Assembly (NCBI GenBank): GCA_013239625.1 | Contig: MU053933.1 | Span: 1,759,026 to 1,823,025 of the forward strand | DNA length: 64,000 nt | From: Lama guanicoe | Taxonomy: Eukaryota | Reading direction: 5' to 3' | Part shown: piece by piece, positions 9,501 to 49,274 of the stretch | Position numbering within the stretch: the stretch's first letter is position 1 | Layout of the letters: the number at the start of each line of letters is the position of its first letter | Program-made: the position numbers and the translations under genes | The notes under the pieces: model-generated | Database searches by the model: none | Told to the model about the DNA's origin: nothing | The model's input: the letters and a program-made list of their open reading frames with translations, nothing else

Positions 9501-12418
9501 CTTTGAAAACATACCTTTCATGTTGCTGCTCTGAGGAAACCACCAGAAAATTCTGCCAACGTGCTCCCTGGTCTTTTAGTATTTTGGTATAAATCATTGA
9601 TTTTCAGGTCCAGGGAAATAACCTAGAGATCCTATATTCTGGTGACATTTTCTCGTGTGATACTTGTTCTCAGGCAGTGAAATCTGAGCAGTAGTGGAGG
9701 AGACGTTGGCTCCTGGGGTGGCTCTCAGCCGAGGGCGGTGAGGGTCCTTCCCTCGGGGGGCCCCGAGCCCCAGCAGGCAGGCCCCCGACGGGGAGTCTCC
9801 ATCCAGCAGAAACACTGCGCAGGGGGATTTGGGCAAAATTCCTGTGCCAGCCTTTATTTCAGAGTAAATGAAACCGAGAGACTGAATGTTCAGGTATGCT
9901 GCGTTTCACACAAGTCACACGGGGCGTCGCAAACAGCGGCAGCTGCCCCCGCATCCCGCGCAGTCTGAGGCTGTCCTTCCCGCTGGTTCACGGCTGGAGA
10001 GAAATCTCGGGTGTTCCTTTTAACCTCCTTCGGAAGCGATATGGGGGCGGTGGTGCTGTCATCGTGAGAGATGCCCGCTTGGCGCTCAGCAGGTCAGGCA
10101 CCCTCCCAGCCGCTTCCCGTGGGGACCGTCTAAGGCCTCCCCCAGTCGTTGACATGGGTGCAGCTGTCACCCCCACTTTACAGCAGGGAAGACTGAGGCC
10201 CAGCTTGCAGGGGGGGCACCTGGCCAGATGGCCACGTCTGCTGTGCACCTCTCACAGGGAATCTTTCTAGGACCCGCTGAGACCCTGAAGGTCCACAGTC
10301 CCAGGGAGCCCAGGGGTCAGGGCCGCATCGGCCAGACAGCCTGTTCCCCAAGCTGCTGCGCCCTCAGCGTCAAACACTGGGCTTCGCAGGTGTGGGAGCG
10401 ACGCAGGCTTAGCCCGACCGTTCTGTCCTCCGTCCCCACACGTCCTCAGAGAGCACTGGGCCCAAGGGACTGGCCCATCACTGCCCACCCAGGGCCCAGC
10501 GTCCAGTGCAGAACAGAGGAGGACAGACCCAGCTCAGCCCCTGGAGGAGCCCCCAGGGGTGTGGTCTGAGGACAGAGGCTCTGAGGGGCCCGAAGCCACG
10601 TGGGCCACCAACCCTCCACCCCCGAGCTTGCCTGGTGCCCTGCGGACATGGCAGGAGGCTGAGAACAGGACGTGGGGAGTGTCTTAAGGGCCTGGTCAGA
10701 AGGCGGCCGTTGAGGGTGCTGCCAGCAGCAGCCAGTTGGGCCGTGGCCCGTCTCCTGTGGTAGAGGGGCCTACCTTGGTGGTGGAGGAGGCCCGGAGGCA
10801 CCAGCAGACACAGAGGGGGCAGAGCCAGCCGGGCGGCAGAACGTCCTCACAACAGCTTTTTAAATGAGAACTGGTTTCAGGGCAGAGGGCAAATCCAGAT
10901 GCCACCAGTCGTGGGTCGGTCAAGGGCATCTGCCGCCCTTCCTGGAGCTCTGAGCCAGACAGCCTCCCAGGCAGCGTCCCCGACCCGAGAACAGACGCCA
11001 CGAGGACCCTGGGTCTGCCGGACGTCAGCTGGCCCGTCATGGTCATGCAGACGGAGATCAGGGAGCCGCTCTGAGAGAGGAGGGCTCTGTCACTTTTCAT
11101 CAGAAGATGGAGGCGGTGTCCTTCCTCGGGAACCGCCCCCCCCCCCCCCCGCCAGGTCAGCACTTCCTCCGGCTGCTCTGGGGATTAAGGACGCGGGAAG
11201 CCTCACCCAGTAGGACAGTCCTCAGGGCAGCCCTCCCAGCCCCTCCCGTGGACCAAGTGGGGAGCAGTGGCCGCCTCCTCTCCTGAGAGCATCTCGGGCC
11301 CGGAGCCGGAGGCCGGGGTGCAGAACCGAGTATCAGAAGAAGCCTTACGGCAGCCTGTCTGAGGCCCCAGGACAGCGGCCTCGGGTCACACGGGGCGCCA
11401 GAGCACTGCAGACTCACCGTGGAGCACAGGGCAGGTCCTCTGCTGTGCAGAGCCCAGGGCTGCGAGTGGACGGGGGGTGCGGGGGCGCTGGGAGCCGCTG
11501 GGGCAGCTGCTGTTGGAAGAGGGTCTCTTGTACTGAGCACCATGAAAGATGCACAGAGGAATGAGTGTCACTTCACCCCAATCCAGCATGAAGACTCCTC
11601 CAGGAGCCCCTCTGTGCTGGGCCCTGTGCCTTGGGGACAGGTTCCTCAGGGGACGCCTCTGTCCTGGGTCCCTTCCTCTGCTCTCGGCCCCTCCTTGCAG
11701 GCCCAGCCGTCTCAGGCTGGGGGGGCGTGGGAGGACAGACCCCACATTTGCTTGTTCACGTGTCCGGTTCCTTCCACACCCTTGCCCCAGGTCCTCACAG
11801 GGAGAGGCGCCCCTGGCAGTGCTGCAGCGGCCATGCACACGGCGCCTGGAGTTGGAACTTCCCGGCGTCCGGGGTGGTGGGGAGGCTGGGGAGCCCGTGG
11901 GCCTGGGACCTGGCCCCACTGAGAGGGGATCTGCCCAGCCCCTTCCAGCCCAGGGCCGAGCACTGGCCTGTCTAGCCCACCGCACACCCGCCCCAGGCCA
12001 CGTCGGGGTCCCGTGTGTGCCCTCCGGCCACAGTCCCGGGTCAGGGTGGGTGGAGCCCACTGACCTGTCTCCTGGCCGAGCCCCGTGACACCACCTGCTT
12101 GCAACGGCTCCAGGCTGAAAGCCGCTTATTGGATTAGCGGGCGCCTAGTGGAACCCCCTCTACGGCAGAGGGAAGGCCTGTGTTTTACGTGCTGCCCCAG
12201 GACGTCCCTGTTTTCCTCCGAGTTGGCCTCTGAGACCCGCAGGCCGCTGCAGGGAAGGCGGCACCCCGGAAGCAGTGTCCTCCTCTGCTGAGCGGATGGT
12301 CTGGGCGGCCATAGCCCATCAGACCCAAGCAGTGTAGACAGGGCCATAATCGCCTTCCTTATCCTTTGGGGAGGCTGACCCGTCCACGCCGCCGTCTCCT
12401 CTCACCGACTCTCACAAG

Positions 12419-12510
12419 GGTCCGAAGATGCTGGCCAGCTACTCAACCTGCCTGTTCTGGGGCGTCTGCACCGGCCTGCTGGCTGTGGCCTTGGCCTATT
12501 ACTTCTACTG
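12419..12510 (+). other. Candidate alternative AGPAT3 5' exon carrying the start of a hydrophobic uORF (ATG 12428)
   Basis: Branch-like CTGAC at 12375, pyrimidine tract, cacaag| acceptor and TG|gtgagc donor. Encodes MLASYSTCLFWGVCTGLLAVALAYYFY(W). Confidence 0.55.
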
Positions 12511-15500
12511 GTGAGCGTGGCCGGCTGGGCCGACCTGGGGGGTCCCATGCCCATGTCTGCTTCTGCTGTGGCCCTTCCGCTCCATTCTCCCTCCCCTGGG
12601 ATGGCGACCTCGCGGCGGGGGAGGGAGGCGGCGGCAGGAGCCAGTCCTGCCCAGGGCACTTGCTCCAGGGACTGACCGGCCCCTCGCCGCTAGCTCTGGT
12701 TCGGAGCCTTCCTGAAGAAGGTTCGGGTTTCCGCCCATCGCTTTGGTACCAGCAGGTGCTCAGGAGGTCTCCGAGGGGAAGTGCCTGACGCTCAGGCCCG
12801 TCTTCTTCCCATACTCTCTGGCCTCTGACCTCACGTCTCCCCAGGGTGGGTGCTGCGGGGGCCGCTGACTTTTGTGTCGGTCTGTAAGCTAAGCAGAAAA
12901 CGGGTCGTTTCCGTCAATGGGACGTCATCTGTTGTAGCCATGAGTGACGACCTGGCTTCCAGAGCGTCACCGATGACCCTCGGCGCAGCTGTGATGGGGG
13001 TGCCCGCCGTTCCTGCTGCATGTGCAGAGTGGGCGGGTTGGGGACCACGCCCGCCTGGGGCTCTGGGTTCTCTGGTCCAGCTGGCCCCTCACGAGGCTGG
13101 GGTCAGAAACGGGGCCTTTGAGCTCTGGGCCCCCAGATTCTACCTGGAGAGCAGATAAGGACGTCAGCCCGGTGTCTGCACGACCTTGCACACAGGCCGC
13201 AACCATGGCTCCACAGGAGGAGAGCCACCCGCCCGGGGTGGGGCGGGGGCCACGAGGAAGCCCAGGCCCCAGTCCGGGAGCACTTTGTTCTAGAGCTGGG
13301 GAGCGGGCTGGCTTCCCGTGGAGAGCGGCCCGTCTTCTGAGGGCTCTGCCCCAGGCGTCGCGTCTCCTCAGAGCACACTCGGTTGGGCTGGGAATTCTGT
13401 TCTGACTGGGAAGCTTGCTCTCCGGTAGATCCGATTAATGCCTGTGTTTGGGGGGGGCGGGGCTGTCCCAGGGGTGCAGCCCCACTTGCTCTCCAGCGGG
13501 GCCTCCCCTCCGAACTCTGCAGAATGAATTCGCGCCCAGAGCTTTTTGCGTTTCAGATCTTATGTAAATGTGGTTGAACAACTGACAAATGAGGATTGCA
13601 CAGAACCAAGAGGTAGCACATTAGTGTGGGATTAGCCCTAATTCCTAATCAGACACTGGTCCCTTATTAGATGGGTTCTGGCCTCTTTGAGGGTGAGCGG
13701 GGCAGTGGTTACGGAGTGGCCCCAGGCCCCAGCAAGGCCCCATGAGAGCGACTGCTTCCTTGATCCTGGACTTCAGGACACTTCTGAGGGTGCAGGACCA
13801 CGGCACAGGTGTGCGACACCTCTGCCCACAAGTGGCCTCCGTGTGGGGCCGTCCTCGGGCACCCGGGGTGGGTGTCTGCCCGATGCGTCACCCTGTCAGG
13901 ATGGCCAGCCGAGACAGGGAGAGGGAGCAGTTTGTGCGGGTTCTGAGGCTGGCAGGGCTGCTGGGCCCAGGTCAGAGACGGCTTGGCCTGAGAAGGGCCA
14001 CGGACTGCATCACACCTGCATCGGGGGGAGGGGCTCGCTGGCTTTCTAGTCCAGTCTGTCATCCATGTGTCCTTCTCTGACACTTGTCCCGGTGACCAAA
14101 GGGTCACTGATCCACAGTTGGGCAGAGACCCCATGCAAAGGACGTTCCCGGTGCAGCTGAGATCTGCCCGTCACGTCCCCGGCGCTCAGAACTGGGAGGA
14201 AACAGCGAGGGTTTCTCTCTCTGGGTGTGCAGAGCTGTCTCCTCCTGGTCAGTGCGGGACCTGAGCATGGCCTTTTCCGCTGCCGTTCTCCCTGGGGACC
14301 CCGAGTCCCGCTCCGGACTTGCTGAGAGCGGCCTGGCCAAGGCCTTCCTGCGGGGCAGTGGGAGCCCACAGCTCCCTGGACCGAGCACCGCTCAGCTCCA
14401 CATCGGAAGGTGCTGCACCTTCCTAAACGTGGAGGTGCGTCTAGGGAAGGGCGCACGGCCTCTCTTGGACATTTTCAGCTATGGATCGTGTAACCTCAGC
14501 TCCCGCTGACGGGAACAATACAGAAAGTCCAGCAGGTGGGGCCTTCCCCTGGCGGACACCTGGGAGGCCGCAGCGGTCCCAGCTGCCCCGCCAGACATCA
14601 CAGCAGCCGGGGGAGAGGCCATCGCCTCGTCTGTCCGGTCCGTGGGCAAGGACTCTGGCCGAGGTGGGCTCCGTCTCGTGCCGGGTGTCAGGTCATCACT
14701 AGCAAAGGGGCTGGACGCAGCCGGCGTGCCGTGGGGAGAAGGCACCCCACCTGTGAGGGAGCACCTCTTTACGCAGGGAAGTCTGGTCCAGCCAAGCGGG
14801 AGGGCCACAGAAGGTGCCACAGAACCTCTGACCGGGGTCGGGGGGGGCGAGAGCTCAGCCCCTTACACGTCTGTCTGCAGGGTCACCACGTCTGGACACT
14901 GTGGCTGGGGCGCAAGCTTGCTTTTCTCAGGATTCAGGTTCAGATTCAGGTGTAAGAGCCCCAGGACCCAGCACAGTGCGTGAGAAGATGCTGGGTCAGC
15001 CCGATGGACTCCACTCTGGCTGCGTCCACTGCCCAGGACCCCGCGGGTGCAGGGAGGCGTGGGGCTGAGGCGTGGCTAAGGTCACTCCCTTTGGGGGAAA
15101 CAGGCAGAGCTGTGTTGCCCTTTCCTCGTGTTTTAAATACTTCGCACGTTCCTTGCCCTCATTGCTGAAGCTGTTTGCGGCATTGGCTTACGATTTTCCT
15201 CTTCTTTAAAGAAAGAAAATTCCTGCCACTAAGAAATACCCAGTAGGAAAAGACATTGCAGTGGCTCGTGTACCGTGTGCGTAGGTGCGCAGTGGCGGCC
15301 CTGGCGGAAGTCTTACTTCTCACCCTCTATCCCGCGCTCTCCGGCGGCGGCCCCCCGCCATGGACGTGTGTGGTTGGCACCGCCAGTGCCACCTGTCCGC
15401 AGCCTCCCAAACCTGGCGTGTTGATAAATTTCCCTCCCTGTCATCTTGGTTGAAGTGTAGTTACTGCTCTGGGGTTTTTGCTTTTTTTCCCTCCCTAGCA

Positions 15501-16587
15501 CCAAAAACCTTGTTCAAAATTACAACGGTAGCTGTTTTTAATGTTACCGATTTATAACCATATGCAGCAATCAGGTTTCAACCCCCTCTTTGAAATGCAG
15601 CCCGTGTGTGTAAATGTTGTTTAAAACCTCACCAGAGCAGAGTCCGGGGGCAGTGAGTCTGAGTTAGTGCCGCTGCAGACAGGAGACGCTGAAAGCGTCC
15701 CTGGGCTCATAGTTCAGGGAAGTAACCGGCCAGACCCCTTCCTTCCTGCCCAGCCTCTCAGAGTGCGCGTCTGTTCTGTTCAGCATGGGGAGAGGGGCAA
15801 CAGAACCTCCCCAACTGATGCGACAGTGCGACCCTCTGGCAGCAAGGCATTTCTTGGGATTAGCAGCTGAACTGTGCCGTGTTACACACGCGCAGAAGGA
15901 GTCCAGTGTCTGTTATTTGTAGGGAAAACAGCACCTTTGTTTTGCTGACCTGCCGAGTACCCTGTAAAAGCTGCTCACGAGGGTCCCTCAGCCCTCAGCG
16001 GTTAATAAGGGGGCCCTGTGGCGTTCATGCTCTTATTAACCCTCAGAGCCACCCCAGGCCACGGGAGGTGGTAAGGTTGTCTTAGTCACGTCTTCAAAGC
16101 AGAAACTGGATTTCGAAGTGATCGTGTCACGTGCTGAGGCCACAGCCATGGGACAAGAATCCAGGTCCCGAGCCTCGGGCCCAACACGGTCCCCTCCTAG
16201 GTGGAGAAGACTGCGGTGGGTGCGGGGCCCCAGGGGCGGGGGGTGGATGCGCTCAACCGAACTGAAATGTGTGGATCGTTCTTGCTCGACAGAGTTACAC
16301 AAGGGTCCGTTTTTCAACTTTGAAGATGTTATTTCATAATCAGCGTGGATCCATGCACGTAAATGCTTTGACGTTTTTATAACTATAAACATAGTAATGT
16401 GCACTGGTTAAAAAAAAATCCTGCAGCACAGAGTGGACGGCAGGGAAGCGGGTTTCCCGGCTGCCTCCCCGTTGTAGTGCTGTCCTCAGAGGGGGCCGTG
16501 TCCAGTCAGCCCTGGGTCTGGTTCTGCATAGTTTGCACGTGCTTCTGTTTCTCTCTATTTTTGTGGGGGAGATAACAGAAGAATATC

Positions 16588-17703
16588 TCTTTTTTCTGAA
16601 GTGTAGTCAGTTTACAATGTTGCGTCAATTTCTGGTGCACGGCACAGTGCTTCAGTCACACATGTACACACATGTATTTGTTTTCATTACAGGTCACTAC
16701 AAGATATTGAATATCTTGCTGTGCAGCAGAAACTTGTTTATTTTATATGTGTCAGTCAGTATCTGCAAATCTCATACTCCCAATTTATCCCTCCCCACCC
16801 CCTTCCCCCCGGTAACCATAAGTGTGTTTTCTGTGAGTCTGTTGTTGTTTTGTAAATAAGTTCATTTGTCTTTTTTTAGATTCCATATATGAGTGATATC
16901 ATATGGTATTTTTCTTTCTCTTTCTGGCTTACTTCACTCAGTATGACCATTTCCAGGTCCATCCGTGTTGCTACAAATGGCATTATTTTATCATTATGTT
17001 GTTACCCCACAACTTCTTTATCCAGTCATCTGTCATTGGACATTTAGGTTGCTTCCATGTCTTGGCTGTTGTAAATAGTGCTGCTGTGAACACTGAGGTA
17101 CATGTATCTTTTCAACTTAAAGTTCCCTCTGGATATATACTCAGGAGTGGGATTGCTGGATCATATGAGAGCTGTTTTTAGTCTTTTGAGGACTCTCCAT
17201 ACTGCTTTCCACAGTGACTGCACCAATTTACATTCCCACCAGCAGTGTAGGAGGGCTCCCTTTTCTCCACACCCTCTCCAGCATTTATCATTTGTGGACT
17301 CTTTAATGATGGCCATTCTGGCTGATGAGAGGTGATACCTCACGGTTTTGATTTGCATTTCTCTGATAATTAGTGACATTGAGCGTTTTTTCATGTGCCT
17401 GTTGGCCATTCGTACGTCTCCATTGGAGAATTGCTTGTTTAGGTCTGCTGCCCAGTTTTGGATTGGGTTGTTTGTTTTTTCTTATTAAGTTGTATGAGCT
17501 GCTCATATGTTCTGGAAATTAAGCCCTTGTCAGTCTCATCTTTTGCAAATATTTTCTCCCATTCCGTAGGTTGTCTTTTTGCTTTGCTTATGGTTTCTTT
17601 TGCAGTACAAAAGCTTACACGTTTAGTTAGGTCCCATTTGTTTATTTTCGCTTGTATTTCCATTACCTGGGTGGACTGCCCTAGGAGAACATGGCTAAGA
17701 TCT
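16588..17703 (-). mobile_element. 5'-truncated L1 (ORF2 C-terminus and 3' UTR)
   Basis: Minus-strand ORF pieces [28 protein letters not shown] and KINKWDL..SFCTAKET match L1 ORF2; T-rich tail at the left end. Confidence 0.92.
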
Positions 17704-17749
17704 ACTGCTCCTGTTTCTTGATTTGCTAATTTTACTCAGCTCCCCAACA

Positions 17750-17835
17750 GATTTTCACTGAGCAGCTGCCGTGCCCCAGGCACTGTCCTAGACCTTTGGC
17801 TGTCAGTGTGTAAGACAGACCAGACCCTCAGCCTC
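17750..17835 (-). mobile_element. L2 3'-end fragment
   Basis: 'ctgagcagctgccgtgccccaggcactgtcctag...aagacagac'. Confidence 0.5.
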
Positions 17836-20629
17836 CTCGGCGGTACTGTCAGGGATTAGGGATTTAGTCAACTCACAGGCCTCCCGCCTTCTCTCCAGTG
17901 CTGCCACTAAGTTTTGTTAGTTGTATTGTTATTTTTTGTTGTTTTACTGCCCCCTCAAAACTTTAATGTACTTAAATTTCCACTTTTTGTTGGATCGACT
18001 TAGACAGAATATCTCTTGACCCCCCATTATGTAAAATAATTTAGGTTTATGATGTTCATGGTCTGTTGTTTAATTGTAATTAAAATATCCATGCTTCTTT
18101 CTAGGTTGATTTTAAATATTAGAAGGCCAGAAATAGCATTCACAATAAAAAATTTTTTTCACAATAAAGATTTAAAAATTAGTTGCTGTATATGCCACAA
18201 GAAGGAACTGGAAATCCAAGTTTTTGCTGCTTGAAGGAGGGCGTTTTAAGCACCTCATTAAACCAATTGTGGGACATCATGCCCCATGTTAATTTGATTT
18301 ATGTTTGGGTCACAGTTTCCTTGCATATCATTTTTTATTACTTGAAAATCTTAATTGCTTTGCTTTTTATTTTTGAGAAAAGAAACATATTCCTTCTTCA
18401 ACAGCAAAAACTGTCAGCTCCTTAATTATAATCTTTGTTGAACAAATTCTGCTTTCTCTTTAAAAGGTTTCCTGTTTTATTTGGACCAATTTCTTTCCAG
18501 GCCATCTAGGAAGTTGTTATCCTGGCATTTCTTCTAATTTCTTAATGGGGCTATTTCTTCTTTTTCTTAAATCTCATGTCATCCTCTTCATTAGATTCCT
18601 TCTTGTTTGGCTGGACAATATCCTCAAGTAATCGTTTCATAAAGGATGAGTGGAAATTAAAATTTCTGAACCCCTGCCTATCCTGAGTTTATCATAATTT
18701 CTGTCTTCATTCTTTGTATAAGTCAGCATCCTGATAGAAAACAAATGGGATTCAAGCTGCATAAAGGGAGGAGAATTTAGTAAAAGGGCTGTTTACAAAG
18801 ATATAGGCAGAGATCAAAGAAAGCAATAAGAAGGTAAAAAAAGAACTTGAGTTAACGAGTTCTTGCTGATAGTGTAGCTTATTTCAGCCACTGTTTTTTT
18901 GTGAGGAACGAAAGGGCCCAGAGAAAAGTAGAAGTATCAATGGAATTAAAATTTACTGTTCTTGGTCCCAGGGCCCAAATTCTGTGACATTTGTAAAGTG
19001 ACCACATATTGGATTGTGCTCTGGCATCTGATCCTAGAGAAAAGCCTGTTGTGCCCCACTCACTGCTGTTGACCTAAAGGTTTCAGCCCAAGAGCACGCC
19101 CTGAACGGTGAGATGGCCGTTCCAGCACATGCACTATGGAGATAACGTGTAGGATGAACGCAGCGTTGGTTCTTGGTGCGGTCAGCAGACCCGTCATTGG
19201 TGTGTGTGCTCCCGTCTGCATTGGAGCCAGGAGGCCGGGCGGGAAGGAGAGAGCAGCTGGGGGAGGGGTGGGGGAGACGGCTCCAGGGAGCTGGATGGAG
19301 GGCGGGGCCGGGCATCCCAGCTCTGCTGGGACTTCCCAGCAGCCCTGCCCAGCTTCCTACGCTGTTTTGTGCTGACTAGAAGGAATTAAAAGTTAATAAG
19401 CAATTTAAAAATGTAAATGTTGCACAATCATCACCACCATAATGGGAAATTAATCAGTAGGTGAAATTAATGCTTCTGAATCTTTGCTATTTTCTTGCCT
19501 CCCGCCCAGCGCATTACTCTGACTCTTGGTCCTCTGTCTAGTAAAGCCTGCCCCCTGACCTTAGGCGGTCTGGGACACTCCTCATCCCTGGGGGCTCGAA
19601 AGCAGTTTGGATGCCCACGGCAGGGCTTCATGAGTGTTTACTGAGAGAGGAGAGAAGTCCGGTGCTAGAAAGAGGCAGAAAGCTCCGTCTTCTTCCTCAG
19701 GCTTAAGTATTAACTATTTGTAACAGCTGGACGAGTCTGTAAAAGTCACCAGATTCCCCGGTAACTCTTTATCTGGCCATGTTAGCATTAAACTCAGAAA
19801 ATGTTTCTCTCTTATGCCTTTTAAATATTAGCAAATTTTGTTACAACTCGTATCCTTGGAAGTAAGTGTGTTGTCTATGTACTGGGGCTCCTGGTGGGAG
19901 ATGTGTGACTGGTCACTTCCCCTGTGGGATTCGTATTCAGCTCACGTGCAGTTTCTGCTGGGCGCTAGGGCTGGGGCCGGGTCGGGGCGGGACTGCAGCC
20001 AGCCCGGGGCTAGGGCTGCCCTGAAGGCAGCTGACCCCCTCAGCCACTGGCCTGTCCTACCTGAGCAGGGTGGTCTGAAAGGGGCCACAGAAAGAGGTTG
20101 GGTCCCCCCAGAAAAACACAAGCAAGGTCTGTTCCTCAGACACCGCTGTGCTGTGATTTCTGGAGTGCTGGACATTCCTCTGATCCCTCCTCGTCCAGGG
20201 TCTCGAGGTCAGTGAGGAGGAGGGCGGGGCTCACCTCCTGGGGGCACGAGCTCGTGGGGATGCAGGGCGGCTTGGGCTGGCGGCCTTGCGCCACCTCGGG
20301 GAAGCCTGTGGCAGCCTTCACTTTACTTTCTACATGACGTTTCACAGGTCTGATTAATGTTCTTGGAAACCATCCTTTACTTTGAAATGTTTGTATGTCT
20401 GAGATGGTCTGAGTTTGTATTCGGATAGGAAGCTCAAATAAGGCAGACTGCCAAGGGACAGGGGACCGCGTGCTCTGACTTGGGGCAGTCTGACCTTTTC
20501 CAGGCCACACCTGGGTCGGGGTGGCTCCGGGACCGCGAAGTGGGTGGGGACCCCTCCACCCTGGACAGACGCCAATGTGGGCATTTGAAACCCATTGAGT
20601 TTACTCCATTTTCAATCCCTACCTTTTTA

Positions 20630-21400
20630 AAAATCTATTTTAAAAAATATAGTTGATTTACAATGTTGTGTTAGTTTCTGGTGTACAGCAGGGTGGTTCA
20701 GTCATATATACATATTCGTTTTCAGGTTCTTTTCCACTATGGTTTATTACAAGATATTAAATATGGCTCCCTGTGCTGGACAGCAGGACCTTGTTTATCT
20801 AGTCTATATATAGTAGTTTTTAATCTGCTAATCCCAAACTCCTAATTTATCCCTCCCCGCCCCTTTCCCCTTTAGTAACCATAAACTTGTTTTCTACGTC
20901 TGTGAATCTGTTTCTGTTTCATAAATAAGTTCATTTGTGTCATAGTTTAGATTCCACATAAAAGTGACACCATATGGTATTTGTCTTTCTCTGTCTTACT
21001 TCACTTAGTATGACCCTCTCCAGGTCCTTGTTGCAACAGATGGCATTATTTTATTCTTTTTTATGGCTGAGTAGAATGCCATTGTGTACATACACCACAG
21101 CTTCTTTACCCAGTCATCTGTGGATGGACATTTAGGTTGTTTCCATGTCTTGGCTGTTGTATGCAGTGCTGCTGTGAGCACTGGGAAGTATGTGTCTATT
21201 TGAGTTTCCTCCAGATACATGTCCAGGAGTGGGATGGCTGGATCATAGGGTATGTCTGTTTTCAGTCTTTTAAGGAACCTCCATACTGTCCCCCACGTGG
21301 CTGCACCAGTTTGCATTCCCCCCAGCAGTGTGGGAGGGCCCCCTCTCTCCACCCTCTCCAGCATTTATTTGTAGACTTTTTTTTAAACTGGTGAGTGTGT
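20630..21400 (-). mobile_element. 5'-truncated L1 3' end, host of the nested younger L1
   Basis: Translation [36 protein letters not shown] matches L1 ORF2. It appears to resume at 23578 ('ttgtagttttgctttgcat'). Confidence 0.9.
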
Positions 21401-23577
21401 TTATTTGATTTATTTATTTTCTTTTTACATTTTTTATTGCATAATAGTCATTTTACAATGCTGTGTCAAATTCTAGTGTACAGCACAACTTTTCAGCTGT
21501 ATGTGAACATATATATACTCATTGTCACATTTTTTTTTTACTGTGAGCTACCATAAGATCTTGTATATATTTCCCTGTGCTATACAGTATAATCTTGTTT
21601 ATCTATTCTGCATTTTAAAATCCCAGTCTGTCCCTTCCCACCCCTGCCCCCTTGGCAACCACAAGTTTGTATTCTATGTCTATGAGTCTGTTTCTGTTTT
21701 GTATTTATGTTTTGTTTGTTTTGTTTATTGGTTTTTTTTTTTTTTTTTAAAATGACATTCTCCAGGAGCACCCATGTTGCTGCAAATGGCGTTATGTTGT
21801 CGGTTTTTGTGGCTGAATAGTATTCCATTGTATAAATATACCACATCTTCTTTATTCAGTCATCTGCTGATGGACATTAAGGCTGCTTCCATGTCTTGGC
21901 TATTGTAAATAGTGCTGCTATGAACATTGGGGTGCAGGTGTCGTTTTGAAGTAGGGTTCCTTCTGGATTTATGCCCAGGAGTGGGATTCCTGGGTCACAT
22001 GGTAAGTCTATTCCTAGTCTTTTGAGGAATCTCCATACTCTTTTCCACAGTGGTTTTCCTTGCTTCCCTCCCCCACTCTTAATGATTTAGATGTCTTCTT
22101 TTACAATTTTGTGTTTATTCTGTTTGGAATTCATGGTAGTTATCATCTTTCCAGTTATGAGTTTCTCATTTTTGTAGCATCCTGCTGCTTTTCTATTTAG
22201 AGTAGACCTGTCAATATTTCTTTTAGCATGGATTTAGTGTTGCTAAACTCTTTTAGTTTTTGCTTGTCTGTGAAGTTCTTTATCTCTCCTTCTATTCTAA
22301 AGGATAGCCTTGCTGGATAGAGTATCCTAGGCTGCATCTTTTTTTCATTCAGGATTTTGAATATATCTTGCCACTCCCTTCTGGCCTGTAGTGTTTGTGT
22401 CAAGAAATCAGCTGAGAGCCTTATGGGGGTTCCCTTGTAACTCACAATTTGTTTTTCTTTTGCTGCCTTTAGGATCATTTCTTTATCCTTGACTCTGGGC
22501 ATCTTGATTATAATATGTCTTGATGTGGGTCTGTTTGGGTTCTTCCTGTTTGGGACCCTCTGAGCCTCCTGCACTTGGATATCTGATTCCTTTAGGTTCA
22601 GGAAGTTTTCAGTCATGATTTCCTCAAATACCTTTTCAATTCCCTTTGCTCTTTCTTCCCCTTCTGGGACCCCTATTATGCATAGATTGGCACAGTTTAC
22701 ATTATCCCATAGGTCCCTTATATTGTTTTCATTATCTTTTATTTGTTTTTCTCTCAGCTGTTCTGATTGGATGCTTTCTGTTGTCCTGTCTTCTAGGTCA
22801 CTTATTCGTTCCTCTGCATTATCTAGCCTGTTTTGTATGGCCTTTAGGTCAGCTCTCATCTCAGCAAATGAGTTTATTAGTTCTACTTGGTTCTTCTTTA
22901 TAGCTTCTATTTCAGTTTTGACATATTTTGTATCTCTAAACACTATTTCTTTTCGTTCCTTCAGTACTATGATCACTCCTTTTTCGAAATCTTGATCTAG
23001 TAGGCCATCAGTGTCTATTTCCTTGATCGTGCTTTCAGGGGATTTCTCTTGATCTTTTATTTGGGAGTGGTTCCTCTGCTTGTTCATATTGCTCATATCT
23101 CTCTGGCACTGTGGCTTAAGGAGTATCAGTTATCTAGTTCTCCTGGAGACAGTGTGCTCTTAATCATTTTATTGAGAGATCTTTGTGTATTCGCAGTATT
23201 TCATGAACTGAGCTTGCTGTTTCCAGAGGCCCTTTGTTGGCGCCCTCATCTGTGCTGCTCCCAGTGGCTGTCGGCTAGCAGATTGCGCCCCCTCCCAACA
23301 CTGAGTCAGGTGCTGAGCTCTTACCCGGTGGGCAGGCAGGTCACTCCCCCTCCCGATGCCACAGTCAGATGCACTGTTTTGCTTTTTTTTTCTTTCTTTT
23401 TCCCTTTTCTCCTCCCGGATTTTTGGTGTCTTTGTCTTTCGAAGGAGGGTGATGTTCTGTTGGAGTTTGGCAGGTGCTCCGGTTGGCTGAGTGGGTCTGT
23501 AGATGTGAGTTTTGGTGTATTTGTGGGAGAGGGTGAGCTACAAGCGTCCTTCTACTCCACCATCTTGCTTCTCTCCC
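21401..23577 (-). mobile_element. Internally deleted L1 of about 2.2 kb: 5' UTR, ORF1, spacer, ORF2 C-terminal stub, 3' UTR and A-rich tail
   Basis: 5' end GGGAGAGAAGCAAGATGGTGG with a YY1-like motif; open ORF1; junction at 22053/22054 into PLWKRVWRFLKRL...; A-rich tail near 21401-21436. Confidence 0.9.
22197..23096 (-). CDS. L1 ORF1p (coiled coil, RRM, CTD), 299 aa open frame
   Basis: RLDNAEERISDLED, IIGVPEGEE, PIRLSADF, ARREW and YPARLSF are L1 ORF1p hallmarks. Confidence 0.85.
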   Translation of the reverse strand: MSNMNKQRNHSQIKDQEKSPESTIKEIDTDGLLDQDFEKGVIIVLKERKEIVFRDTKYVKTEIEAIKKNQVELINSFAEMRADLKAIQNRLDNAEERISDLEDRTTESIQSEQLREKQIKDNENNIRDLWDNVNCANLCIIGVPEGEERAKGIEKVFEEIMTENFLNLKESDIQVQEAQRVPNRKNPNRPTSRHIIIKMPRVKDKEMILKAAKEKQIVSYKGTPIRLSADFLTQTLQARREWQDIFKILNEKKMQPRILYPARLSFRIEGEIKNFTDKQKLKEFSNTKSMLKEILTGLL

Positions 23578-26500
23578 TTGTAGTTTTGCTTTGCATAAAA
23601 TCTTTTTTTTAAGTATGTGACTTCTGGTGCCTCTTTAATGGCAAATGTGACATTTTAAATCTTTATGAATGTCCTTGTTCATCCTTTGAGGTTTGTGTCT
23701 CATTAAAAAGCACTGTTAAACACCGACAGATTCTGGAGTTTGTGGTGGAGACGCCGTCCCCACGCTCCCCCAGGCGTCCCTGTCATGCTGGGTTGGGGTG
23801 GGGGTCATGGAGAGAAAGCCTGCAGGAGGGTGAGCCCCCCCCCAGCAGCTCTGGGACCTCACACTCTCCCCAGCTGTGCGGTTTCCCCCGGCTCTCAGCT
23901 CCTCCAACCAGCTCCTCCCTCGGTGTCTGCCCCAGGGAGCTGAGGGCTGCATCCCACACCGCTGCAGGCACCCGCCTCACCTGATTTTTTGTTAATTGTC
24001 CTGTGACATCAGATGCCCCATGGGGCCAAGAGAAGTGGTCAGCTTGCAGTTTGTCTGGCTTTATCCTGTTGCAGGGCTGGAGTGACAACCACTCCCAAGG
24101 GGAAACCAGGGCTCAATGTGACATTTTAAATTGTGAAATATATTGTCCATGTAGAAAAGTCCATTAACAGCCAGTTTATTGAATAATTAGAAAGCAAACA
24201 TCCACCTGTTTCTCTAAGTAAAATGTCACTATTATAGAGGGCAGGTCATTGTCACAAAACTACATCCGAGGCAACTTAGCCATGCCTGTCGTGTGGGGGC
24301 GTGTGCGCACGTGTGCCTGCCTGTGTGTGCCTGCGTGTGTGTGCCACCGGCTGCAGCCCCGGTGTGAGGGATGCCTGCTGAGTCCTCGGGCCCGGAGGCT
24401 TGTCACCGGTCCCTGGAAGCCCTTCCCATCCTTCCCACCCCCACCACAAGGGTCACTGCTGCTCAGGCCAGTAAAACCATCACCACCACCTCGGAAGGAC
24501 AAAAGATTCTGGAGCTCAGAGAACTGGTGCTTGTGGGCAGTGGGGCCCTCGTCTCTGAGGGTCCGCCTGCCCCGTCGGCTTGCCCACTGGCCCGCCCTCC
24601 CACCATTTCCACGATGGAAGCAGACCCTCCTCCCAGGGGAAACAGCAGCACTTCACCACCCCTGTCCTTGGCCTGTGGTTCCCAGGCCTTCTCGTAGCAA
24701 CTGGCAGTGGCGAGAGAGGGTTCTGGCCTCCTTCAGAGGTGGTCTGGGACCCAGGGACCCTTTGATACACATGACTCCTCCAGCAGCCTGCAGTCAGGGT
24801 GGGTGCCGGCCGTGTGTGACCCCTGCCTTTCAGCCTGGGCAGCCAGTTCCTTGCCTGACCTTTGCTGGCCGGGGCAAGGCCCCGGATGCCCCTGGTGGGG
24901 GCTGCAAGGACGGGCAGCTTCCTCTGCTGAGTCCTTTCTCCCTCCAGCCTGTGCAGCCCCCACCCCAACCCCACTGGCCTGTGGGGAGCTTGGCAGGGTC
25001 TGGAGATTCTCCATGAGATCGTCCGGCCAAGGGCTGCATGGGCTGTCCTGTCACGTTGCTCTTTCAGGAAGCTTTGCACGGAGATCGCCACACTGATGTG
25101 GGAGTGGCACGAGATTAGGAAGTCATGCCACCGTTATCACAAATGTACGTAGTAAATCTGAGCATCCGTGTAGCGAACTTGGATGGAGCAGCCGTGTGTT
25201 GGGCACCAGGCCCACGGGAGTGAGAGGAACAGAACTGATGGGCCCAGGGGACAGAAATGGTGAGCTCTGGTCCCCCCGGCCTCTTGAGGGGCAGTTGCTG
25301 GCACGGTTTCAGCCACACACCGATGCCCACAAGGACCCGGGGTCTTCCCCCTCCGCTCGCAGTGTGGGTCCCTCCATGCTCTTAAGGGGGCTGCCGCAGA
25401 CGCCCCTTCCTCACTCAAGGAGGCAGAAGAGTGAGGGGCTGTGCCAGGGGGATTTGTCCTGGGTGTTAGGGAAGCAGACGCCTCCTGGGAGCCCTGGGTG
25501 GCCCAGTGCCTGGGACTGGGCCATGTGCCTACCCTGCGTCGGTGGCTCAAACTGGGCGTGGAGTTACTACCTCTCTGCCTTAGGTCTGGGGCTGGGGGTC
25601 CCCTCCCCTCCCAGAGGTCGAGCAGAACTCTCCTATGAGGGGGTTTTGTGAGGGAGGCCTGGAGGGGCCGTTCTGATGGGCATTTCATGGCGGTTGAGAG
25701 AGGTTAACGCCAGAAGAGCTTCCTGAGCCCAGCAGTGGTTTTAGGTCGACTTCGTGTTCTGTTTATTGTCACATGTCTGACTCAGCTGAAGTGCAGGCTG
25801 GCCTTAAGACAAACGCACAGGACAGTCAGTCGTCCCCAGGTGGCCCCAGGGGCCAGCTGCCGGGCTGCTGGGGGCCCCCACATCCTCACTGCCCGGCTTC
25901 CTGAACTCCTCCACTGTCCCAAGTGACCATCTGGGGCCAGTGACCTGGATCCATTAAGTCAGAAAGAAAGAAATCTTTCTATTGTCTTAGCCCCTCCGAA
26001 TTACTTCAGGTGGAACCACTCATTGAACATTATTAGAATATTGACTCCTGTAAATTGTACCAGTTTTACTCCTTTCAACAGTACTGGACTCTCTTACTGT
26101 TTGTAGCAGCATTTCAGTTGCAGTGGATTCCCCTGGGTTTATGTAACACAAACCCGCCCGCGGCGAATGGTGATGCTCTTACCCCCTCTTGTCGCTTCTC
26201 AGACGTCTTGGCAACTTCAGACGCTGTTGAGGGCAGACCAGCAATGGATCATTATTAGCACAAAAATACATCATATTTTTCAACCTTACTGAAAGCTGAG
26301 ATGGTCCCTGTAAGTGAATTTACCCAAGAAATGACGCTAGACTCTTTAAACCTCCAGATAGGACTGTGTCTGTCTACTCTAAAATTTTTCTTTGACTCAT
26401 GGGAATACCTCCCCGGCTCCCCGCCGTCTCTGGCACCAGTGAGCACGGCGCACTGTCGGCGCCGGGTGAGGTCGGCGGGACAACAGTCACTGCATTATGT

Positions 26501-27134
26501 TCTCACCCGTGATGTCACCGCGGGCACTGGGTCTGCAGAGCTGCCCCATGCTCGACGCCCCGTGGTGGCGCAGCCTCAGGTCCTGGGCTTGCCTCCGTCC
26601 TCAGGCTGCGTCAGCAGGATGTCTGCCTCCAGCACCCCCCACCCCGACTTTTCTCATCTGGCGCTTCAGATTGGCTATGGGCCAGGAGACCACCCAGTCC
26701 CGCTTGTCCGAGCTGTGTTGAAAGCAGGAGTGAGGAAGAACCTGTCTAGGAGCTGAGAACCCTACCTTGTGAGGTGTGCTTGCCCCCTGACCCCAGCTGG
26801 CTGCTCAGGGAGCGCTGAGGGCTTGTTCCCGTTCTTGGCTGTGTTCTGAACAGGAACCATTGCCACCTGAATTATCTTAAGATGCTTTTAAAATGCTTGA
26901 GATAAGATTATGTCTCTACTGCCCCATGTTTCCAATAGTCAGTCCTGCTCACAGACTTTCTCATCCAGTATCTCCTGGCTCAGCAACAGCAAAACTATCC
27001 ACAGCAGAACAAAAACCTAGGGCTTGTCCCAGTATGTTCCCCCGGTGCAGCCAGCCGGCACGGCCTTGCCGCTCTGCTGCCTCCTAGCAGACCAGGTCAG
27101 CTCTGCTTGCTGTACACATAGACACTCAAATATG

Positions 27135-27370
27135 GGACAGATGGATGGATGGGTGGATGGATGGATGAGTGTGAGTGGATGGCTGGGCAGGTGGGTGGAT
27201 GGAAAGAGGGGTGAGTGGGTGGGTGGAAAGAGGATGAGTGGGTGGTTGGATGGGCAAGGTGGGTGGGTGGGTAGATGGAAGGAAGGATGAATGGATGGGT
27301 GGGTGGGTGGATGGACAGGTAGGTCAGTGAATGAGGCAGAGGAGGGGAAGAAAGGAAGGAGGGAAGGTGA
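27135..27370 (+). repeat. (GGAT/GGGT)n degenerate purine-rich microsatellite, probably an expanded L2 tail
   Basis: Visible tandem GGAT/GGGT/GGAA units, preceded by an L2-end-like 'cacatagacactcaaatat'. Confidence 0.85.
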
Positions 27371-28311
27371 CATCCATTCCTTGGTTTTCCTGCATTATGG
27401 ACTTGGAGTTTGGGTCACATGTAACTGAACACTTCTTTCTAATCCTAAACCAGACTTCCTAGCTGGAACATCCAAAGCGAGGCACTTTCGGCATATTTAG
27501 TGTCTTCTCCCTTCACCAGGCACTGTGTGCACAAGGGCAGTTGCTCAGGAGACACGCTCCGACAGGGCAGGGTGAGCTGCCGGCTGTGACCACAGCTCCG
27601 AGGGGTGACTGGTCCTGGAATTGTTGTCAGTGACGATGCCTTGGCCTTGGATCTCAGGAACCAGGGCAGCAGGTCCACTGAAGCAGTGTCCCCAGGGCCG
27701 GCCAGTTCCTGCTCCAGCGCAGGTTCAGACGCCCGGCTGTGGGGCAGGGCCTACTTGTTGCAGGCTGAGGGGGCAGCCCAGATCGGGCGCTGCTCCCCGA
27801 GGTGTATGATTAGACCCTGCTGGCGGAGGCTGGGGGGACTGACACGGGCCCTGTGTATCAGTGAGGCAGCAGTCTTCCACGTGCAGAGGGCTGTGGCCTT
27901 CTCTACCTGGAATGAAGGAACAGAGGGACCTGGCCGCCACTCTGGGTGTGGGGAGGATGGCAGGCCCTCAACCTCAACTTCTGTTTCTATGGAAAGACTC
28001 TTGGAAGGGTGGGGTTTTGGCAAAGATGAGGGGTGCCTGGGAAGGAGATCTGAAGGTCAGAGCATCTGACTGGAGGCTAGTTTTTGAGGAAGAGGGACAA
28101 AGGGACCAATGCCGGGAAGAGCGAGTCCTGCGGGCGTCTGGCGGTGGGCCCTGAGGCCGGGCAGGGGGCCGAGGAGCCTGCCCTTGAGCAGGGCAAGGCT
28201 GGGCCAGGGTCGTGGCAGGCCCCGGGTCTCGGGCGGCGGGACGTGGCGGGGGGGCTTGTGCACGTCCAGGGTTGCGGGACCCGGGAGCAAGGCCTATATC
28301 TTGGTGAGAGG

Positions 28312-28659
28312 TGTGCTCATCCTCCCGGGGCCGTGCTTCGGCCCCACAGGCCGGGGGCTTACACAGACATTGCTTCTCTCAGCCCTGGGGGCCAGACGCC
28401 TGAGACCAGGGTGTCAGCAGGGCTGGTCCTTCTGAGGGGGGAGCACGTGTCCACTTGCAGGTGCCACCTCCTCTGTGTCCTTATGGGGCCCTCCCTCCCT
28501 GCAGGTCTGCATCCTTACCTCTTCTCACAAGGAGGCTGGGCAGGTTGGAGCAGAGCCGCCCTGACGGCCTCGCTGAACTTGACCCCATTGTGGAGGCCTC
28601 ACTCCGAGGTACTGGACCCCAACATACCCTTTTGAGGGAGCACAGTTCACCCCTAACAA
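28312..28659 (-). mobile_element. MaLR solo LTR (MLT1B/C-like), diverged
   Basis: 'ctgagaccagggtgtcagcagggctggtccttctgagg...gaggtactgg...caacatac..tttgaggg..cacagttcacccctaaca'. Confidence 0.65.
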
Positions 28660-28910
28660 GAAGCGCCCGAGTTAAGGCTGGGAGCGGCCAGGGCAGAGCC
28701 TCGCCTGGCATGGGGTGATGCTCAGTGATCCCACGGGGCTCGGGTCCCAGCTCTTCCCTCACCCCCGGCCCTGAGCCCCCGGCAACGTGGTGACAGGATC
28801 CATGGGCTCAGAGTTCGCAGCAGAAGCCCCTGGAGGGGCAGTGTCAGAACCAGAGCTGGGAGGAGGGTCCAGCTGGGGCTCCCAGGCCTCCCATCCTCTC
28901 CGGGACTCAT

Positions 28911-28995
28911 GTTAAATGCAATTCAACTTAACAGTATCTTCAACTTGTAATGAGTTTATCCAGATGTCGTCCCATTGTAAGTCAAGGAAGATCTG
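28911..28995. mobile_element. Tigger-family (MER47-like) terminal fragment
   Basis: 'ttaaatgcaattcaactt...ttcaacttgtaatgagtttatc...cccattgtaagtcaaggaagatctg' followed by a TA target dinucleotide. Confidence 0.6.
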
Positions 28996-30544
28996 TATAT
29001 TTAAAAAGTAAAACTTCCTGAAATGCCAGAATTTATACCCCTTGTATATTTAAACTTGGGTTTAAAAATATAGAAATCAACTTAAAATTGTCTGGTGATA
29101 CATAATTTAAACATAATTTTTTGAAGGGGTGCTCTTGAGGGCTCTGAGCCAGTGCTTTCCCACCTGCGGGTCTGCAGGCCTTGAGGGAGCCAGGGAGAGT
29201 GGGGGGAGCGGGGCGTCTTCCTACCACCGCCCTCTGCAGGGGGGCTGGTTGGCCTGCCATTGGTGAAGGGCCTCCCAGTTAGCGCATGTGACTGACGTGT
29301 TATCACGGTAGGCAGACCCCACTGCACCAGAGGTAGGGGGCCAAGTGACAGCCATGTCCAAGCAGATGATGGACTCTGGGTGCTCTGTAGGGGAGGGCAG
29401 GTGGGAGGGGCCCTGGACTGCAGCCGCTGGCGTTCCTTGGGATGGAGTCTGCCCCAGGGAGCACTGAAGTCAGACCCACCTCTGGGCATGGAGGGTGGAC
29501 TGACAACCCCGGCAGGTGGTCCACAGCAGGGAGGGCGGCCGCAGCCAGGAGCCCCCGTCAGGCTCACGCCCGGAGCAGGGGTCGGTTGGGGGGAGGTCGG
29601 CAGTCGGTTGAGGGGGGGTCGGCAGACAGCGGCAGGGCCTGCCCAGATGGTTCATCTTCCATCTCCACCTGCCTGTCACCCCCTGGAGCAGACAGCAGGC
29701 CATTATGGCCCCAGGTAACGTGGGAGCATTTGCTCCAGCAGAGATACGCCGCCGAGGGCCGAGGCCACCCGTGAAGGAGTCCTGTCAGGCTTGGCTCCCG
29801 CTTGCTCCTGGACCAGGAGGTAGTGAACCTGACTGGGTCATGAAGAAGACTGGCGGTCAGAACTGAGCTTCTGGGCCCCGGCCAGCCCACACCAGGCCAG
29901 GAGCCCTTGCCAGGGCTCACATAGCCCCGCTGGACCCCACGCCCGTGTCACGGGAGAGCGCGCTGTGTGGCTGGGCCTTGGCTCCGTGCTGGGCCCCTGG
30001 GACAGACCCCATGTGCCCCTGCTTCTGTGCCCCTCTAGGAAAGGAAGACGGATCCGCCGTCAGAAAGCCGAGAGGTGCTGCGGGGGGCGGGGGGCAGGGG
30101 CGCGGACTGGGCAGGGGCGGTGGAGCTGCTTTGTCTAGCTGGGGCAGCGGTCGTCCCTCTGTGCGCGTGTGGATCTGGCCTCGATGAAGCTGGCTCTCTG
30201 TCAGTCTTGTGCCTGGTGCCCTAATGATGGAATCTGCTTCTAACAGCGTCACAGCTGATGGGCCAATCCTTGAGCTGGCTTTCTGGGGACCCTGGTAATT
30301 GTGGCCTACGTGGTGAAGCCCTGTGCCTGACGTGGAATGGTGGGAGGGGGTGCAGAGAGCCTGCCAGGTGCAGGTCGGGGGCCAGAGGCCGGGCGGCATC
30401 GTCAGGTCTGGTCAAAGCCATTGTCTCTAGTCCCAGAAGGAAGCGGGCCTCGGCCGGACCTGGCTGATGTGTGTGACGCTCTGTTTACAGAGGGTCCCCG
30501 CCCACGGAGGGCCCGCAAGGGAGCGTGGACTCGGGTCTCCTCGC

Positions 30545-30645
30545 CGGAATTGGAGTCCAGCCCTCCCACTCTGTGCTGTGTGGCCCTGAACAAGCCACTT
30601 AGCCTCTGGGCTTCCCTTGCTCGCCCGTCGAAGAGGGGTGGTGAC
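30545..30645 (+). mobile_element. MIR SINE fragment
   Basis: 'gctgtgtggccctgaacaagccacttagcctctgggcttc'. Confidence 0.6.
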
Positions 30646-31614
30646 AGGGTGCCGGGGCCTGGGGGGCTCGGGAGCGGCCCCTGCAGTGCTGTCTCCCCTC
30701 TGCATCCCGGGTGGGCACCCAGTCAGCTGACTCGCCAGAGCAATGGTTCGCTTTCTGCGTTTACGCTCTTGCGACCCACCGTGTAGTGGCAGAGACACCT
30801 CACGTGCATCCCGTCCGAAGGGCCGCCTCCCGGAGGCTCCCAGGCCCAGGCCGGGTCTCAGCCCCTCCCACGTCCTCCAGGACATCCTCCTTCCACGGCC
30901 GCTGGGGCCTGGGGCAGGCAGGGGGCGTCCTGCCTACGACTCAGCCCCGGGAGTCACTGGCCTTGTTGCTGGCACAGTTGGGCATCTCCGGGCACGGGCA
31001 CCTCGGGTGGGGGGCAGCCAGGTCCCTCGTGCCACCGTGTGCTCGGTGTGGCGCACCTGGAAGCCTCCAGAGCCCGCTCCCCCTGCAGCACCAAGGAAAG
31101 CGTGTGGTCACCTCTCCCAAGGACCCAGGGCGGGGCTGGTGGCGGGCGGCCACTGGGATGTCACCAGGCCGGCTCGATGTTGCCAGGGCATGACCCCCAC
31201 TGCCCGTCTGCTTCTGTCCACACAAGGAGTTCAGGGCAGCGCATAGGGCAGGAACCGCCAGGCAAGGCCAGCTTCTGGCTTTGCCTTTGAAGCCAGGAAA
31301 CCGGTGTTGAGGAGAAAGGAGAGGCTGGCTAAGTCCTGGGGTCCCCGCTTCTGCGTCAGAGGCCAAAATGAAAGTTTTTCAGCTAAGAAAGTGCACAACG
31401 GCTCGGGAGTTAAAAGACATTCGTTGAAGTGTTTTTTTGTTGTTGTTGTTGAAGTGTTTTTATAGAGATTTGGTGTGCTGGTTTGATCTTTTAAATAAGA
31501 TGCTAAAAAAGAAAAGAAAAATTACCCATAATGCCTTTACCTGGAGACAATCACTATTAATATTTGTGTACATTTCTGCTAGTCTTTCCTTTCTTCCTTT
31601 CTTGTATGCATGGG

Positions 31615-31686
31615 AGTGTGTGTGTGTGTGTCTGGTGTGTGTGTGTGTGTGTGTGTGTGTGTGGTGTGGCATGGTGTGTGCGTGTG
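31615..31686 (+). repeat. (TG)n imperfect microsatellite about 210 bp upstream of AGPAT3 coding exon 1
   Basis: Directly visible TG runs. Confidence 0.95.
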
Positions 31687-31946
31687 CACATGACACCCGT
31701 GTGAACAGTGTGTGTCCGCTCACCCGTCTACCGTGTGTCACTATAGACGGGACAGATGCAGAGGACACTGCGGGTGAGCTGCTGGCTCACAGGCCCCACA
31801 GGTCTGGCTCTGGCGTGAGGACCGTGGGTTTCTCCTCCGCCTGCAGACCCTCCTCCGGGGGTCCCAGGCACCCCCTGACCACTGCTCCTCCTTCCAGGAC
31901 GGCCGTTCTCAGTGAGGGACCTTGCACGCGCTACTGAGCTGTGGCC

Positions 31947-49132: not shown

Positions 49133-49268
49133 TTAATGGCTGTGATTGAACACACATAACCTGACGGTGGTATCCAATTAACTCAATTAAAAACAGAACA
49201 ACACACACAGAGCGGGAAAAAGACACTTAGAAACTATTTTTCTTATTAACTGGTGACTAATACTGACC

Positions 49269-49274
49269 AATAAA
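49269..49274 (+). terminator. Proximal polyadenylation signal AATAAA
   Basis: AATAAA about 140 nt after the stop codon, plus ATTAAA at 49186-49191. The downstream element is weak. Confidence 0.3.

Follow-up and report, generated by a model that had tools for sequence, protein, structure and literature searches.

Several human mRNAs are bicistronic and encode a conserved microprotein in an upstream open reading frame (uORF); MIEF1-MP, ASDURF and the SLC35A4 uORF protein are examples. Single-pass membrane micropeptides are also produced from genes of their own, as with phospholamban, sarcolipin, myoregulin and DWORF, which regulate SERCA. AGPAT3 (LPAAT3) is an acyltransferase that places docosahexaenoic acid (DHA) into the phospholipids of retina, testis and brain. 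A 64,000-nt stretch of Lama guanicoe contig MU053933.1 (assembly GCA_013239625.1, positions 1,759,026 to 1,823,025 of the forward strand), here termed the window, contains the whole AGPAT3 coding region and, 19.4 kb upstream of coding exon 1, a 92-nt exon-like unit. Spliced to the first coding exon, this unit gives a uORF of 40 codons that ends 9 nt before the AGPAT3 start. The 92-nt unit is probably genuine, an alternative 5' exon of AGPAT3 with an ancient origin, and its peptide is probably the N-terminal helix of a former, fish-type AGPAT3, detached from the enzyme by a stop codon.

A putative spliced uORF upstream of the AGPAT3 start codon

The features of the locus, numbered from the first base of the window, are as follows.

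12375 to 12418, forward strand: putative 3' splice-site region, with CTGAC at 12375, a pyrimidine-rich tract and AG at 12417–12418
12419 to 12510, forward strand: probable 92-nt alternative 5' exon of AGPAT3, its 3' end set by the donor at 12511
12428 to 12510, forward strand: first part of the uORF, comprising ATG, 26 codons and TG and encoding MLASYSTCLFWGVCTGLLAVALAYYFY(W), the predicted transmembrane-helix core
31898 to 31937, forward strand: remainder of the uORF, carried by the exon with the AGPAT3 start, where G completes TGG (W) and is followed by TAVLSEGPCTRY and TGA
31938 to 31946, forward strand: spacer of 9 nt that separates the stop of the uORF from the ATG of AGPAT3
31947 to 32126, forward strand: AGPAT3 coding exon 1 (...SLWS), donor at 32127, 90% identical to chimpanzee AGPAT3 residues 1–60
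38224 to 49132, forward strand: remaining AGPAT3 coding exons, located by tblastn with residues 59–376 of chimpanzee AGPAT3 at 82–100% identity

A scripted coordinate join of 12510 to 31898 yields a 40-codon frame reading ...YFYW followed by TAVLSEGPCTRY, with the stop codon TGA at 31935–31937. The frame starts upstream of the main ATG at 31947 and stops ahead of it, and by sequence it is therefore a uORF. In the window the first base of this TGA precedes that of the AGPAT3 ATG by 12 nt, so that stop and start also share one frame. The uORF ATG at 12428 lies in the context AAGATGC, with A at −3, and 28 of the 38 bases upstream of the AG at 12417–12418 are pyrimidines. The donor at 12511 (CTG/GTGAGC, the slash marking the exon boundary) is in phase 2, and all orthologous genomic ORFs end in ...YW and then stop, at the same place; unspliced, the frame closes at TGG TGA. 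The 5' end at 12419 is provisional: were this a first exon, its start could be at another position. A first-pass annotation, made from the letters of the window alone, had proposed the CTGAC, tract, AG, donor, ATG, frame, splice join, stop and AGPAT3 ATG, and all of these are present where it placed them.

Proteins with exactly this spliced structure are already catalogued. The marmoset UniRef entry A0A8I3WJY5_CALJA (P0128) is 40 aa long and clusters with A0A9L9P0W8_HUMAN (P0130; three Catarrhini members, found on five Logan contigs of up to 2609 nt) and with A0A8P0TKZ8_CANLF from dog (P0131). All three are named 'Uncharacterized protein', carry no assigned function and share the tail TAVLSEGPCTRS; this tail had been given for the human 5' untranslated region (UTR) by the first-pass annotation, and matches the human entry. 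On the window, the human 40-mer aligns to 12428–12511 (21 of 28 residues) and 31899–31931 (11 of 11); these are its only matches at E < 0.01. The second segment, TAVLSEGPCTR (residues 29–39 of the human protein), is identical in the window. The spliced form is the sole possible source of such 40-mers. The three entries represent the orthologous ORF itself, with the same two-exon structure of a 28-aa core plus TAVLSEGPCTRS. Relative to the human protein, 7 of the 28 residues in the core of the window product are different, as is its final residue (Y for S), and the copy of the window species is not among the named entries. A search of sequencing runs with the 92-nt exon listed no RNA run containing it; four runs of unspecified kind, all from one study, matched five of five sampled exon words and count as no evidence.

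The gene downstream is, on its protein matches, AGPAT3 (LPAAT-gamma). Chimpanzee AGPAT3 (P0047, 376 aa) maps full length to eight forward-strand exons between 31947 and 49129 at 82–100% identity. Beyond coding exon 1 the approximate tblastn limits are 38224–38418, 38949–39110, 39880–40059, 40568–40675, 43421–43498, 48240–48461 and 49043–49129, followed by the stop codon. All seven exon junctions of AGPAT3 are downstream of the uORF stop. A protein search with coding exon 1, in which the in-frame stop was entered as X, gave 104 matches among 212 candidates, and those with names are AGPAT3 or 1-acyl-sn-glycerol-3-phosphate acyltransferase gamma, with the domains PF01553 (Acyltransferase) and PF16076 (Acyltransf_C).

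The composition of the uORF resembles that of a coding exon. Third codon positions are G or C in 24 of 27 codons (P = 0.004 in a binomial test with the local GC content of 64% as expectation), and GC content by codon position is 0.44/0.48/0.89 in the uORF exon and 0.58/0.32/0.95 in AGPAT3 coding exon 1. The claim that the third positions are G/C-rich like those of the AGPAT3 exons thus holds, with a GC content at third positions (GC3) of 0.89 and a similar periodicity. Both strands of the window were also scanned for units of 75–150 nt in which an ATG stays open as far as G/GTRAG, and 29 comparable ATG-to-donor units were found. The uORF unit is the most hydrophobic of the 29 (Kyte–Doolittle 19-residue maximum 1.82) and the only one free of charged residues, although both ranking criteria are post hoc. 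Taken by itself, the window evidence that the uORF exceeds chance is suggestive and not significant; the argument that it goes beyond chance is based on the conservation of its peptide.

With no charged residue in its core, one hydrophobic helix and a length below 100 aa, the product is predicted to be a single-pass transmembrane micropeptide. AlphaFold2 (AF2) models the human 40-mer as one helix spanning residues 4–33, with a mean predicted local distance difference test score (pLDDT) of 78.8 and pLDDT of 95 and 89 across residues 11–30. The putative transmembrane character suggested earlier is consistent with the hydrophobicity maximum, the lack of charge and this single modelled helix. Neither the human nor the dog 40-mer matched a Pfam family at E <= 0.01, which places them outside the described micropeptide families. 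A complex prediction for chimpanzee AGPAT3 with the Catarrhini 40-mer scored 0.02 against a mark of 0.34; it was run without controls and is not evidence either way.

Conservation in mammals and relatives in fish

Word-indexed protein searches with the exon frame missed the 40-mers. They returned only an ab initio gene model from reindeer (P0001, 542 aa), where low-complexity sequence surrounds the core, and an 80-aa genomic read-through ORF of ruminant-like origin (P0002) whose cluster has 10 members. Among the seven 80-aa ruminant-like members, 11 of 52 columns vary upstream of the core as against none of the 28 within it (Fisher P = 0.007). The 40-mers were recovered by an exhaustive HMMER search of 1.84 billion representatives at E <= 0.001, which matched 15 proteins: 12 short genomic ORFs, the marmoset 40-mer, a pangolin entry (P0129) and an unrelated protein (P0122). 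The 12 short ORFs (30–121 aa) have unrelated N-terminal read-through sequence, and all end ...YY[FL]YW at the stop made by the donor. The pangolin protein, a 78-aa nr entry named 'Tumor Necrosis Factor Ligand Superfamily Member 11' (TNFSF11), carries the helix-exon core with another continuation and is probably a mis-modelled and misnamed gene.

Together, 29 sequences provide 18 distinct mammalian cores, every one of which retains the frame; their sources include primates, a carnivore, a pangolin and ruminant-like species. Thirteen of the 28 core columns are invariant. Substitutions at residues 8–28 are mostly conservative (V/I/L, A/T/G/V, F/L) and residues 3–7 are freer; the only indel is a single-codon deletion. 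Identity to the window is 20–26 of 28 residues in the core, compared with 2–9 of 20 in the upstream read-through flank. The core peptide is thus conserved across lineages beyond the adjoining non-coding sequence. Within the long intron of the window there is a further conserved block, at 26617–26718; its translation of 34 residues shows 76% identity with the C-terminus of the reindeer model.

Relatives of the exon are also found in fish. Among the 104 matches to coding exon 1 there are four fish AGPAT3 models that start with or include a homologous helix, which runs in frame, with no stop, into the AGPAT3 start.

Danionella cerebrum, DNTS_034745: MLNQGAVMIFTGVCGALVVMAVAYYAYW-TVLLI-MGVLAWLK, with a 5-residue linker
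Etheostoma spectabile, FQN60_001507: 7-residue linker to the AGPAT3 start
Aldrovandia affinis, AAFF_G00230790: 18-residue linker to the AGPAT3 start
Gymnothorax javanicus, GJAV_G00207550: linker of about 23 residues, the start of the exon joined differently

The fish helices follow the pattern ML.Q....[IV]FTG[IV]CGA...AYY.Y[WC], and mammals and fish all keep M1, L2, F10, G12, C14, L17, Y24, Y25 and Y27. Pfam recognizes both acyltransferase domains in the Etheostoma and Danionella models and PF01553 only in that of Aldrovandia, while the domains of the Gymnothorax model come from precomputed annotation. The frame from the exon ATG into the AGPAT3 coding sequence is therefore uninterrupted in the four fish models, and is interrupted in the window by the TGA at 31935–31937. 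In another fish, Pangasianodon gigas, the first coding exon (MGVLAWLK...SLWS) is present twice in tandem (P0012), which explains an outlying search score and is likely to be a duplication of assembly or annotation.

Two scans of metagenome contigs were made, the second with an alignment of the cores. The first found no orthologous DNA, and the two together found no DNA of other mammals. The second scan yielded two contigs. One (L001) is a fish genomic contig that carries the exon and ends short of the AGPAT3 coding exon; its peptide is identical to the N-terminus of the Etheostoma model over 27 of 27 residues. Its acceptor (CAG/G) is 8 nt ahead of the ATG, compared with 9 nt in the window, and its donor (TG/GTAAGT) has the same phase as that of the window. 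Between window and fish, 12 of the 28 residues are identical, and six of these 12 are encoded with silent nucleotide changes. Nucleotide identity is 0.53 in the exon and 0.20–0.25 in the flanks; differences by codon position number 15/9/15, the sequences being too diverged for a rate test. The other contig (L002, 4761–4838) was rejected as a chance match to a hydrophobic stretch in a bacterial-looking metagenome contig unrelated to AGPAT3.

No helix exon was found in birds in the searches made. Eight genomic ORFs (P0013–P0020), the coding part of which matches quail AGPAT3 (P0052), read ...FR/T[VI]ILSD[GS]PC[TK]RFWVVI-MGFIAFLK, so that their 5' UTR portion forms an open, in-frame stretch and W occupies the position of the mammalian stop. 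As evidence this open frame is weak, since sixteen open in-frame codons are not rare.

The frame relation between uORF and enzyme appears to vary among mammals. The tail and stop of the marmoset 40-mer and the N-terminal extension of Aotus AGPAT3 isoform X3 (P0025) can be read as overlapping frames of one stretch of DNA, a fit obtained in none of 2000 shuffles. The spacer between stop and ATG would therefore be 8 nt in New World monkeys, compared with 9 nt in the window, and the uORF would consequently be out of frame with AGPAT3 in those species. This non-conserved relation, as far as it can be read from the two proteins, argues against conserved read-through of the stop codon, and would fit two independent cistrons after the stop arose. 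Selenocysteine at the uORF TGA was also considered and was dropped, as no reason to suspect it was found.

Several other features of the locus were recorded. At 31616–31686, about 210 nt ahead of the splice acceptor of coding exon 1, lies a (GT)n microsatellite with some 37 copies; repeats of this type close to acceptors are able to influence splicing. A CpG scan inside the window found no strong island upstream of 12419. The two strongest islands are at 39201–40900 (observed/expected 0.88), over AGPAT3 coding exons 4–5, and at 49201–50600 (0.81), just past the stop codon; neither is upstream of the gene, and the latter may act as promoter for an adjacent gene.

Proposed origin and alternative explanations

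The first-pass annotation proposed a spliced uORF under presumed coding constraint, giving a 40-aa putative transmembrane peptide just before the AGPAT3 start, and the 40-mers, the 18 cores and the fish exon all support this. The present results add to it that the ORF is already catalogued, that the uORF is in frame with AGPAT3 in the window, and that in fish models the helix extends the enzyme at its N-terminus. In the explanation that we consider probable, the homologous exon in the fish gene models encodes an in-frame extension of AGPAT3 with an extra helix ('TM0'). In mammals a stop codon would have detached 'TM0', which would now be made as a separate micropeptide from the uORF. Residues 1–28 of this peptide would form a short N-terminus and a transmembrane helix with an aromatic YYFYW cap, and residues 29–40 (TAVLSEGPCTRY) would come from the AGPAT3 start exon. 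The fish 'long' AGPAT3 models are themselves probably real isoforms.

Transcripts that include the exon would be bicistronic-like: a single-pass membrane microprotein of 40 aa would be made from them and, at lower efficiency, AGPAT3. From the rules of translation, the upstream AUG, with A at −3, would be expected to take most scanning ribosomes, and a 40-codon uORF with a 9-nt spacer should permit only poor reinitiation. AGPAT3 would therefore be made from such mRNAs mainly by leaky scanning to its strong GCCATGG start. As the uORF stop is upstream of seven exon junctions, the isoform is expected to be prone to nonsense-mediated decay (NMD). The peptide is predicted to be too short for co-translational targeting, and would therefore be inserted post-translationally into the membrane of the endoplasmic reticulum.

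It is possible, if doubtful, that the detached helix still packs against the membrane helices of AGPAT3. A further proposal, which we hold to be rather unlikely, is that a single stop brought about a gene fission: the ancestral first helix, fused in fish, would now be a separately translated 40-aa subunit or regulator that is transcribed together with the enzyme, as a spliced uORF, and docks on AGPAT3 in mammals. Use of the 92-nt exon would then set both the amount of enzyme and the 'TM0' partner, and so tune the synthesis of DHA-containing phospholipids.

The exon could instead be purely regulatory, a 5' 'poison' exon or uORF whose inclusion lowers AGPAT3 through start competition and NMD, with the peptide as a by-product. 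The stop that precedes the AGPAT3 ATG by 9 nt and all seven exon junctions, the A at −3 of the upstream ATG, and a searched literature in which no sign of peptide production was found are all consistent with this. Against it count the conservation of the amino acid sequence itself, with mostly conservative changes in the helix, a single-codon indel and 18 intact cores, the silent changes at six of the 12 residues shared with fish, and the position of the exon within the enzyme ORF in the fish models; we regard a purely regulatory role as distinctly unlikely. That the open frame arose by chance in a conserved non-coding element or UTR exon, or is a decaying relic of the fish-type extension, is disfavoured and highly improbable. 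The window does contain 29 comparable units, and GC-rich DNA readily gives hydrophobic frames rich in Leu and Ala, but against this explanation stand the codon-position periodicity in GC, the 24 of 27 G/C third positions, the silent changes at residues conserved with fish, the in-frame indel of one codon, and an ATG and frame kept in all 18 mammalian cores.

Another alternative, which appears improbable, is that in this species the exon belongs to a different transcript, not joined to AGPAT3, either as the first exon of a small gene or long non-coding RNA upstream of AGPAT3 or joined to other downstream exons. The reindeer and pangolin models continue the core with unrelated sequence, and the end of the reindeer model has a 76% match in the block at 26617–26718. 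These models look like ab initio artefacts, however, one being a 542-aa protein of low complexity and the other misnamed as TNFSF11, whereas the 40-mer joined to AGPAT3 is found in three mammals, its tail is matched at 11 of 11 residues in the window, and the fish models likewise join the exon to AGPAT3. Least probable is an N-terminally extended mammalian AGPAT3 made by read-through of the in-frame TGA. The frame of the TGA at 31935 relative to the AGPAT3 ATG, the continuous ORF in the fish models and the W in the eight bird-like ORFs would all suit such a protein. Against it stands the 8-nt spacer expected in New World monkeys, by which the frame relation would not be conserved in mammals. 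The known read-through context, moreover, is UGA-CUAG, and the TGA-G of the window differs from it, which also counts against read-through.

Some points weigh against the detached-helix explanation itself. The base at −3 of the acceptor is A (AAG/G), which makes the acceptor weak, and use of the exon and of the junction 12510–31898 in this species is deduced from orthologues. The database 40-mers may stem from automatic or NMD-type transcript annotation, and so are not proof of a peptide; no ribosome-profiling or mass-spectrometry support for it was seen in the literature searched. Orthologous ORFs can be found only where they are open, which leaves species with a broken frame invisible (an ascertainment bias), and the comparison with other mammals uses protein sequences only. 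The reindeer and pangolin models join the exon core to other sequence. The fish fusions are automatic gene models, which include exons only if these are in frame, and most fish AGPAT3 entries among the 104 matches begin at the canonical M. AF2 gives a pLDDT below 50 over residues 1–32 of the fish long isoform, and is thus silent on how the extra helix would pack.

Comparison with described uORF microproteins and micropeptides

The literature searched, with queries that included the UniProt accession, the peptide strings and PhyloCSF with AGPAT3, yielded no paper on an AGPAT3 uORF or its peptide. AGPAT3 is absent from six supplement files of PMC10032668, and from the main text and nine of the eleven supplement files of PMC6886504. 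Table S5 of PMC11929002 lists a small ORF, PL01529, under AGPAT3, which may or may not be the uORF described here; the 40-mer string is absent from those files of PMC11929002 that were searched. PMC11929002 also mentions ASNSD1_u_96. A BUD23 preprint mentions reduced translation efficiency of Agpat3.

What is already known is thus a catalogued, uncharacterised 40-aa ORF, and what is new is the likely origin of its peptide as a cut-off N-terminal helix. If the explanation favoured here is correct, a peptide-coding 5' exon maintained from fish to mammals would provide an extra layer of control, and possibly a small membrane partner, for AGPAT3. It would also be a clean natural case of a uORF microprotein that arose when a stop codon cut off an existing N-terminal helix, and not de novo. 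For annotation, the 92-nt exon should be marked as coding in this genome.

The closest relatives outside mammals are the fish long AGPAT3 models, which share with the window a homologous helix exon in the same gene and, in the fish contig, the same donor phase. In these models the helix is part of the enzyme, whereas in the window and the three other mammals a stop separates the two. Compared with phospholamban, sarcolipin, myoregulin and DWORF, the predicted AGPAT3 peptide falls in the same size class and has the same architecture of one transmembrane helix with short tails. It has no sequence relationship to these regulators, as judged by the lack of a Pfam match, and differs from them in being encoded by a uORF of its putative target. 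MIEF1-MP, ASDURF (ASNSD1) and the SLC35A4 uORF protein are likewise conserved peptides encoded in the 5' leader of the mRNA of a known protein. Compared with these, the AGPAT3 uORF is far smaller at 40 aa; it also crosses a splice junction, requires an alternative exon and is apparently derived from the ancestral N-terminus of the main protein.

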